64,000 nucleotides of DNA. Source: a bacterium (GTDB lineage: Bacteria; Babelota; Babeliae; Babelales; UBA12409). The translations under genes were made by a program, and so were the position numbers. This document shows positions 62,711 to 63,091 of this stretch, piece after piece (position 1 is the first letter of the stretch; each line of letters starts with the position of its first letter). The stretch is from the NCBI GenBank assembly GCA_018660415.1, contig JABJKG010000013.1:193874-257873 (forward strand), in the 5' to 3' direction. A model generated the notes under the pieces. That model was not told where the DNA came from. It saw only the letters and a list, made by a program, of their open reading frames with translations, and did no database searches.

Positions 62711-63091
62711 TTACTCTTTACATCTTGCTTTAGTTGCAGCTCTTACGTCAGCATCTGTACGCTTTCCGGAAAGGCCGGTGAATGCACGTCTAAAGTCTTG
62801 TAAGTTTTTAGCATTAAGTGCTCTTACAAGGTCGTTAGCTAAAGCTTCTATTTCTTGAGGAGATGAGTTTGGGCATGCTGTAGCAATATCGGTCATAGCT
62901 TTGTTTTTTACATCAGCATCATGAAGTTTTCCTGATTTGCCAGTAAAGCTACGTTTGAAATTTTGTAAATTTTTAGCGTTAAGGGCTGCTACAAAGTTAT
63001 TAGCAAAGTTATCTAAATCTGTATTAGCATTAAGGGTGGTAATGCTTCCAGTTAAAAGGCAAACATAGAGAAGTTTCGTTATAGATTACAT
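62711..63091 (-). pseudogene. Secreted protein, family F, with TAA as codon 2 (63086-63088) and 125 further codons open
   Basis: GGAGG at 63097-63101, ATG at 63089-63091, TAA, then SITKLLYVCLLTGS... This matches the neighbouring paralog's MKSITKLLYICLIAS, where the same codon is AAA. Verified codon by codon down to the track ORF 62711-62896. Confidence 0.6.

Follow-up and report, generated by a model that had tools for sequence, protein, structure and literature searches.

What should be made of a gene whose start codon is followed at once by a stop, when the signals around it look ready for expression? Such a locus lies near the right end of the 64,000-nucleotide stretch of DNA analysed here (the window), and the original prediction had placed several explanations side by side: a very young pseudogene, a base-call error or population polymorphism, an on/off switch, or translation that continues or restarts past the stop. 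Our best explanation, to which we assign a probability of roughly 0.85, is that K2* (AAA to TAA in codon 2) has recently arisen as a loss-of-function allele in a real gene, restricted to its lineage, that encodes a small secreted protein.

The start-stop site and the gene behind it

Read directly on the minus strand, GGAGG (63101-63097) is followed by AAAAA, ATG (63091-63089) and TAA (63088-63086), within the sequence ccGGAGGaaaaaATGTAAtctataacgaaactt. Translation from this ATG gives M*SITKLLYVCLLTGSITTLNANTD...ATKARCKE*, in which 124 sense codons stay open behind the premature TAA and end at a second TAA (62713-62711). The predicted arrangement, a GGAGG and 5 nt ahead of an ATG-TAA that heads an open frame, is what direct reading of the DNA returns, with 124 sense codons before the native stop where 125 had been counted. 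The features of the locus, in window coordinates, are as follows.

63126..63155, minus strand: promoter-like TTGCAA-18 nt-TACAAT with TG before the -10, from a scan; putative function
63097..63101, minus strand: Shine-Dalgarno-like GGAGG, 5 nt upstream of the ATG; read directly
63089..63091, minus strand: ATG start codon, the same start as in the intact 126-aa allele (L002/L071)
63086..63088, minus strand: premature TAA at codon 2 (K2*), from comparison of assemblies
63026..63085, minus strand: rest of the Sec-type signal peptide region, (MK)SITKLLYVCLLTGSITTLNA, now untranslated in the TAA allele
62714..63025, minus strand: mature-domain region, two 55-codon copies of a three-helix module, from repeat analysis and AlphaFold
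62711..62713, minus strand: native TAA stop of the gene; read directly
62711..62896, minus strand: 61-aa residual ORF from Met66, from the ORF listing and the gene callers' annotation
62651..62686, minus strand: intrinsic-terminator-like hairpin and T-run between the gene and its paralog, from fold computation
61973..62497, minus strand: adjacent paralog, 174 aa from ATG 62497 (188 aa from TTG 62539)
61963..61972, minus strand: deletion junction at a 10-bp direct repeat, AAAAAGGAAA, from comparison with L002/L071/L009
61697..61962, minus strand: 3' remnant of a 438-aa coiled-coil gene, its last 89 codons plus stop

The signal peptide was called by eye, from a basic N-end, a hydrophobic core and an LNA-N site. 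The mature domain repeats a module with the core NAKNLQxF[KR]RxFTGxSGK; the internal duplication noticed originally is real, but its period is 165 nt, or 55 codons (families D1/D2), and not the approximately 45 aa first proposed. In a confident AlphaFold model of the protein (mean pLDDT 86, with values >90 for residues 20-120 and <50 for residues 1-19), six helices make up two three-helix modules.

The promoter-like site overlaps a conserved upstream block common to the gene, its paralog and a sister lineage, and the sister contig L005 keeps the same promoter hexamers. This block had been picked out in the original prediction and was recovered here, AAAYCACTTTGATAC having only two exact copies in the window (63129-63143 and 62533-62547); repeat analysis traced the copy before the paralog over 62533-62580, and the first 44 nt around the two gene starts are 89% identical (family D3). 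A strong terminator had likewise been proposed, and the fold computation agrees, placing it at 62686-62651 with a 16-bp stem and T-run (-23.9 kcal/mol, z = -6). Apart from four tRNAs, Rfam found nothing in the window, neither a leader nor a riboswitch.

The paralog starts 594 nt downstream of the gene start and opens, as originally read, with ATG AAA TCT ATA ACG AAA CTT (ATG at 62497). It is intact, has the same signal peptide followed by one copy of the module and then a coiled coil, and ends at its native TAA (61975-61973). As for the start-stop motif itself, the relaxed pattern GGAG-N4-10-ATGTAA occurred at least once in 55 of 100 shuffles and is thus not beyond chance. The significance of the site therefore rests on comparison with an otherwise identical AAA allele.

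TAA and AAA alleles and the haplotypes that carry them

We gathered the locus from public assemblies through the exact DUF167 protein encoded 1.4 kb away. Over 12.6 kb, two of these loci, L001 (a 408-kb ENA scaffold) and L003 (from JGI 3300004276), match the window at 100% identity. In a 561-bp alignment of four assemblies that spans promoter, gene and terminator, the single variable column is the first base of codon 2 (window position 63088): L002 has A there, the base of the intact allele, and the minus strand of the window, like L001 and L003, has T. The AAA allele of L002 encodes an intact 126-aa protein (MKSITKLL...), and the mature-domain coding sequence (62714..63025) does not differ between the window and the intact allele. 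That an otherwise identical allele reads AAA confirms the single A-to-T change of a Lys codon that had been deduced from the paralog. Between L009 (TAA) and L071 (AAA), both undeleted, one base differs in 6,186 bp, which indicates that the lesion is very young; with the K2 base as the sole difference in these 6.2 kb, the first of the original explanations, a very young pseudogene, is upheld.

A pattern scan found TAA not only in the window but also in nine loci (L001, L003 and L007-L012, with L001 and L007 being two views of one scaffold), from at least 8 other samples in JGI and ENA, and L002 alone had AAA among the loci then gathered. TAA-bearing contigs range up to 544 kb. The intact 126-aa protein was subsequently located on 7 contigs from 7 samples (L071-L077, of which L072 is the L002 contig), while the 61-aa tail ORF, a gene call confined to TAA contigs, is present in 53 index blocks; the neighbouring DUF167 gene is present in 62 index blocks, close to 53 + 7. 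A cluster look-up gave 29 contigs with the tail ORF and 4 with the intact protein. TAA is the major allele, at approximately 88% of index blocks, and AAA the minority, these frequencies being counts of assembled contigs or index blocks; many of the samples seemingly come from few related projects, and the counts cannot be treated as independent. Samples with neighbouring accessions, apparently from the same projects, differ in their allele (Ga0233413 TAA and Ga0233414 AAA; Ga0209665 TAA and Ga0209664 AAA). Population variation is otherwise near nil, with 2 SNPs in 12.6 kb and a density at this locus of about 1 SNP per 6-10 kb. The population polymorphism raised as a possibility by the original prediction is therefore real (TAA in 53 index blocks vs AAA in 7), and the base-call error named alongside it is excluded, because the identical TAA occurs in at least 8 other samples from JGI and ENA.

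The NCBI MAG records MBT4856067.1 and MBT5015799.1 list the 61-aa tail as 'hypothetical protein'. The pseudogene state is invisible in databases, where the truncated form serves as representative of the 90% cluster, and annotators should be warned that the tail is recorded in NCBI MAGs with no pseudogene flag.

A word-indexed search of 5.8 billion proteins returned one ortholog only, of 127 aa and 76-77% amino acid identity, encoded on two sister-lineage contigs (L005/L006, ∼82-87% nucleotide identity) at the same position by the T2SS-F gene. This ortholog begins ATG AAA and is intact, which indicates that AAA is ancestral and TAA derived; comparison of the orthologous locus, which had been put forward as a check on the original prediction, thus supports a young lesion. 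A metagenome contig scan for orthologous loci returned the sister contig alone, already known, and a T2SSF query against GTDB representatives found no relative; judged by this query, the species has no entry of its own among them. Between the window lineage and L005, the gene has a dN/dS of 0.29 at a dS of 0.49; the corresponding dN/dS values are 0.28 for the paralog and 0.03 for the adjacent T2SSF gene. Given the dN/dS of 0.29, the gene was functional coding sequence until very recently, and these ratios describe a gene that evolves fast, yet under constraint; the confident AlphaFold model likewise speaks for a real gene and against a spurious ORF.

The gene is the first of a six-gene orphan cluster beside the T2SS-F/PilC gene. 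In the full haplotype, each of the six consecutive minus-strand genes (126, 188, 181, 153, 90 and 438 aa) encodes a protein with a signal-peptide-like N-terminus, and long coiled coils occur in most of these proteins. The window is without the 2,349 bp that lie between two copies of AAAAAGGAAA (equivalent to L002:10614-12962), a deletion that took the 181-, 153- and 90-aa genes together with codons 1-349 of the 438-aa gene; the 89 codons counted in the remnant include three inside the junction repeat (61963-61972). Outside the cluster, one synonymous SNP in 10.6 kb separates L002 from the window. The full cluster is combined with AAA in L071 and L072 (the L002 contig) and with TAA in L009, and the deletion is combined with TAA in the window, L001, L003, L008, L010 and L011; AAA with the deletion was not seen among the haplotypes compared. 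These haplotypes fit the order AAA/full, TAA/full and TAA/deleted, with no need for recombination, and all three fit a single origin of TAA. Contigs L012 and L073 stop exactly at the deletion junction, as we would expect if both structural forms coexist in a sample.

Structural variation extends past this cluster. Haplotypes that are otherwise identical also differ in structure beyond the right end of the window, on the other side of the T2SS-F gene (L001:13025-14563 compared with L008:489-1516, L011:171-1516 and L071:3684-4711), where the small hypothetical genes encode 150 aa only, 150 + 173 aa, or 256 + 173 aa. The whole orphan-gene neighbourhood is indel-variable, and SNPs are almost absent from it.

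Translation of the TAA allele and the explanations weighed

The first in-frame ATG, GTG or TTG after the premature stop in the ORF listing is Met66, and the ORF that it opens has no Shine-Dalgarno (SD) sequence before it, no signal peptide and no first module. The ATG of the start-stop is the main ORF's own start, and no SD-led start follows it up to and including Met66. The premature stop is followed by T (UAA-U), a context in which termination is regarded as strong in E. coli. TAA terminates 31 of the 50 ORFs of at least 150 aa in the window, this gene included. The site itself contains no simple-sequence tract, the promoter is not bracketed by inverted repeats, and no invertible segment was found. 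Given that there is no canonical in-frame start before Met66, that TAA is a normal stop and that there is neither a repeat tract nor an invertible element, a null allele is the best reading, and we infer that the null would be complete. Rescue by frameshifting or ribosome hopping was considered and rejected, since the +1 frame runs into a stop after 3 codons (A TGT AAT CTA TAA) and the one ATG close by (ctctATGttt), which is out of frame, opens a 4-codon ORF. Two of the original explanations are left unsupported: translation that continues or restarts past the stop finds no support in a normal TAA that is followed by T, with no canonical start before Met66, and neither does an on/off switch at a site with no repeat tract and no invertible segment.

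With promoter, SD and ATG untouched, mRNA is probably still made. Ribosomes would load, form fMet and be released at once at UAA-U, and with Met66 as the next canonical start, lacking both SD and signal peptide, no secreted protein would result. The derived TAA has risen to become the major allele of a nearly clonal population, in which the intact AAA stays as a minority. A second lesion, the 2,349-bp deletion between 10-bp repeats, would have followed on the TAA background and taken most of the remaining cluster, so that a host-dependent bacterium would be losing accessory secreted genes, probably for host interaction, one step at a time. Possible drivers are relaxed selection with clonal hitch-hiking or selection for loss, and the data fit either. 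Given that a minority still carries the intact gene, this would be ordinary gene loss caught very early, with no special translation mechanism.

In Rickettsia, Mycobacterium leprae, Sodalis and Shigella, single point mutations are known to have inactivated genes in the course of genome reduction. The K2* allele resembles the young pseudogenes of such host-restricted bacteria in that one disabling substitution has hit an accessory, secreted gene with its expression signals intact, that a deletion between short direct repeats follows nearby, and that the phylum is host-dependent with small genomes. It differs from them in that the ancestral, the null and an intermediate structural haplotype have all been caught in wild metagenomes, and in that the gene family is an undescribed orphan. 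Events of this kind are well known; what is new is the particular gene, organism and series of haplotypes. The mechanism, a nonsense mutation that leads to a pseudogene, is ordinary, and the value of the locus would be that of a clean natural example: three successive haplotypes (intact, K2*, and K2* with the 2.3-kb deletion) coexist in public metagenomes and would show gene loss step by step in a member of a host-dependent phylum, marking the orphan cluster as one that the current population can do without or even selects against.

The explanation that survives best after this one, although we regard it as improbable, is that the TAA allele is a leaky hypomorph, in which re-initiation at an AUA two codons downstream (63082-63080) or read-through of UAA yields a little protein with a still usable signal peptide (M-TKLLYVCLL...), the start-stop acting as a strong attenuator. 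The AUA lies 3 nt past the stop, and SD, ATG and the whole downstream frame are intact, as the youth of the allele would explain equally well. Functional start-stops that bind ribosomes are also documented in E. coli, where 14 such sites lie out of frame inside genes such as yecJ and hslR (Meydan et al. 2019, bioRxiv 10.1101/520783); that of yecJ binds ribosomes and cuts the output of its host ORF by ∼16% (bioRxiv 10.1101/520783). Our site has in common with these an SD-led AUG directly before a stop, where initiation and termination without a peptide would be expected. However, the E. coli start-stops are out of frame, internal to expressed genes and modest in their tuning of the host ORF, while here the gene's own start is joined to a codon-2 nonsense mutation that is polymorphic and would abolish the main ORF. 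AUG-stop minimum uORFs in plants and viruses, such as that of NIP5;1 in boron sensing (Tanaka et al. 2016, cited in bioRxiv 10.1101/520783), share the adjacency of AUG and UAA upstream of a coding region; they are conserved and lie in the 5' leader of a separate main ORF with its own start, whereas no main-ORF start with a ribosome-binding site lies downstream here.

Several further observations argue against a leaky allele. UAA-U is regarded as a strong terminator in E. coli, and AUA is a very poor initiator. We found no recoding signal and no suppressor tRNA (the window's four tRNAs are ordinary Arg and Ser species), and the start-stop is not conserved, since the sister lineage and the minor allele both read ATG AAA. 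A further destructive deletion on the same haplotype also fits a cluster that is being lost. A more demanding version, in which K2* is a selected hypomorph that makes traces of secretable protein through AUA re-initiation or occasional read-through, is slightly less probable again. If it were true, the population would have turned a host-exposed protein down, not off, and the allele would be without natural precedent as a segregating start-stop attenuator that sits where a gene itself initiates.

That the TAA is a sequencing or assembly error, or the consensus of a mixed population whose true gene reads AAA, we consider very unlikely. Both alleles occur in sister samples of seemingly the same projects, so that an assembly could be the consensus of a mixture. 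Against this stand the recurrence of the same TAA, which the window shares with nine other loci (at least 8 samples, JGI and ENA sources, contigs up to 544 kb), and the nature of the change, a transversion at a non-homopolymer position that is linked to structural haplotypes.

There is an equally slim chance that the site is a programmed on/off switch, driven by phase variation, a diversity-generating retroelement (DGR) or an invertible promoter. Genes of this class (secreted, fast-evolving, in a variable cluster) are often phase-variable, and both states occur in nature. However, the change is a single-base transversion and not a change in repeat length, with no tract and no inverted repeats flanking the promoter, and one position varies, not many adenines as in DGR-type mutagenesis. 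TAA is moreover strictly linked to the downstream haplotype structure, as expected of a single mutational origin. Both candidate mechanisms were rejected: DGR-type adenine mutagenesis on account of one variable base in more than 6 kb with no A-specific cluster, and phase variation or an invertible promoter for want of a repeat tract or flanking inverted repeats.

An alternative genetic code or a dedicated suppressor that reads TAA as an amino acid is barely credible: the paralog, 1.1 kb away, at first appeared to have an in-frame TAA followed by approximately 90 open codons, which suggested a pattern, but this TAA is the paralog's native stop and the frame behind it is open because the deletion put the remnant of the 438-aa gene in frame by chance, the undeleted haplotype has separate, well-formed genes, TAA is the commonest terminator of the long window ORFs (31 of 50, at normal gene lengths), and the four window tRNAs are ordinary, with no suppressor among them.

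The protein, its organism and the neighbourhood

With K2* read as a loss-of-function allele, the question is what kind of protein has been lost. Pfam gave nothing above threshold for it, an exhaustive phmmer search of 1.84 billion representatives returned its own 61-aa tail and the paralog family only, and in the PDB Foldseek matched nothing at E < 0.6 or TM > 0.4. The organism is an uncultured marine Dependentiae (TM6/Babeliales) bacterium: its AtpA shares 89% identity with that of candidate division TM6 bacterium RIFCSPHIGHO2_12_FULL_36_22 and, for the most part, 60-71% with those of dozens of Babeliales/Dependentiae genomes. The window has a GC content of 38.6%, and its genes include those for F-ATPase alpha, a Cpn60-family protein, RecD2, PBP2, BamA, CysS, TruB and a GDPD-family protein, as well as the T2SS-F/PilC protein, which is divergent from the gene of interest.

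Characterised Dependentiae are obligate intracellular parasites of protists. A role of the protein in host interaction would be a guess from its signal peptide, its orphan status and the biology of the phylum. In the Dependentiae isolate Chromulinavorax, signal peptides occur in 44% of CDS, and the secreted set is enriched in ORFans and has been read as a host-manipulation apparatus (PMC6561590). Like the secreted ORFans of Chromulinavorax destructans (PMC6561590), the protein studied here is small, carries a signal peptide, has no recognisable homologs and is clustered with secreted coiled-coil proteins; unlike that repertoire, it has no ankyrin repeats and no enzymatic domains, and its secretion is predicted.

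Four further observations concern the surroundings of the locus. A gene for a chagasin-type peptidase inhibitor (Inhibitor_I42 by precomputed Pfam; 57137-57496, minus strand) adjoins a signal-peptide ORFan of 437 aa with no Pfam match (57696-59009, plus strand), and the two are candidates for further host-interaction genes near the cluster. Contig L004 (L004:1-8874) is 99.96% identical to the window from the exact edge of tRNA-Ser(gct) (60234-60321) onward, and its upstream genes (glyoxalase, two Proton_antipo_M-family, chorismate-binding, ECH-family and TPP-enzyme) are absent from the window; this suggests either a breakpoint at the tRNA gene, left by a rearrangement or an insertion, or else that the contig is chimeric. 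The Cpn60-family protein (38518-40191, plus strand) has a moderate Pfam match (E 2.6e-80) and may be a divergent GroEL paralog rather than the housekeeping copy. Finally, tRNA-Arg(tct) (24670-24746, plus strand) is antisense to the last 42 nt of a 1,303-aa ORF (24705-28616, minus strand), in which the known domain (PPDK_N) matches the N-terminal third only.
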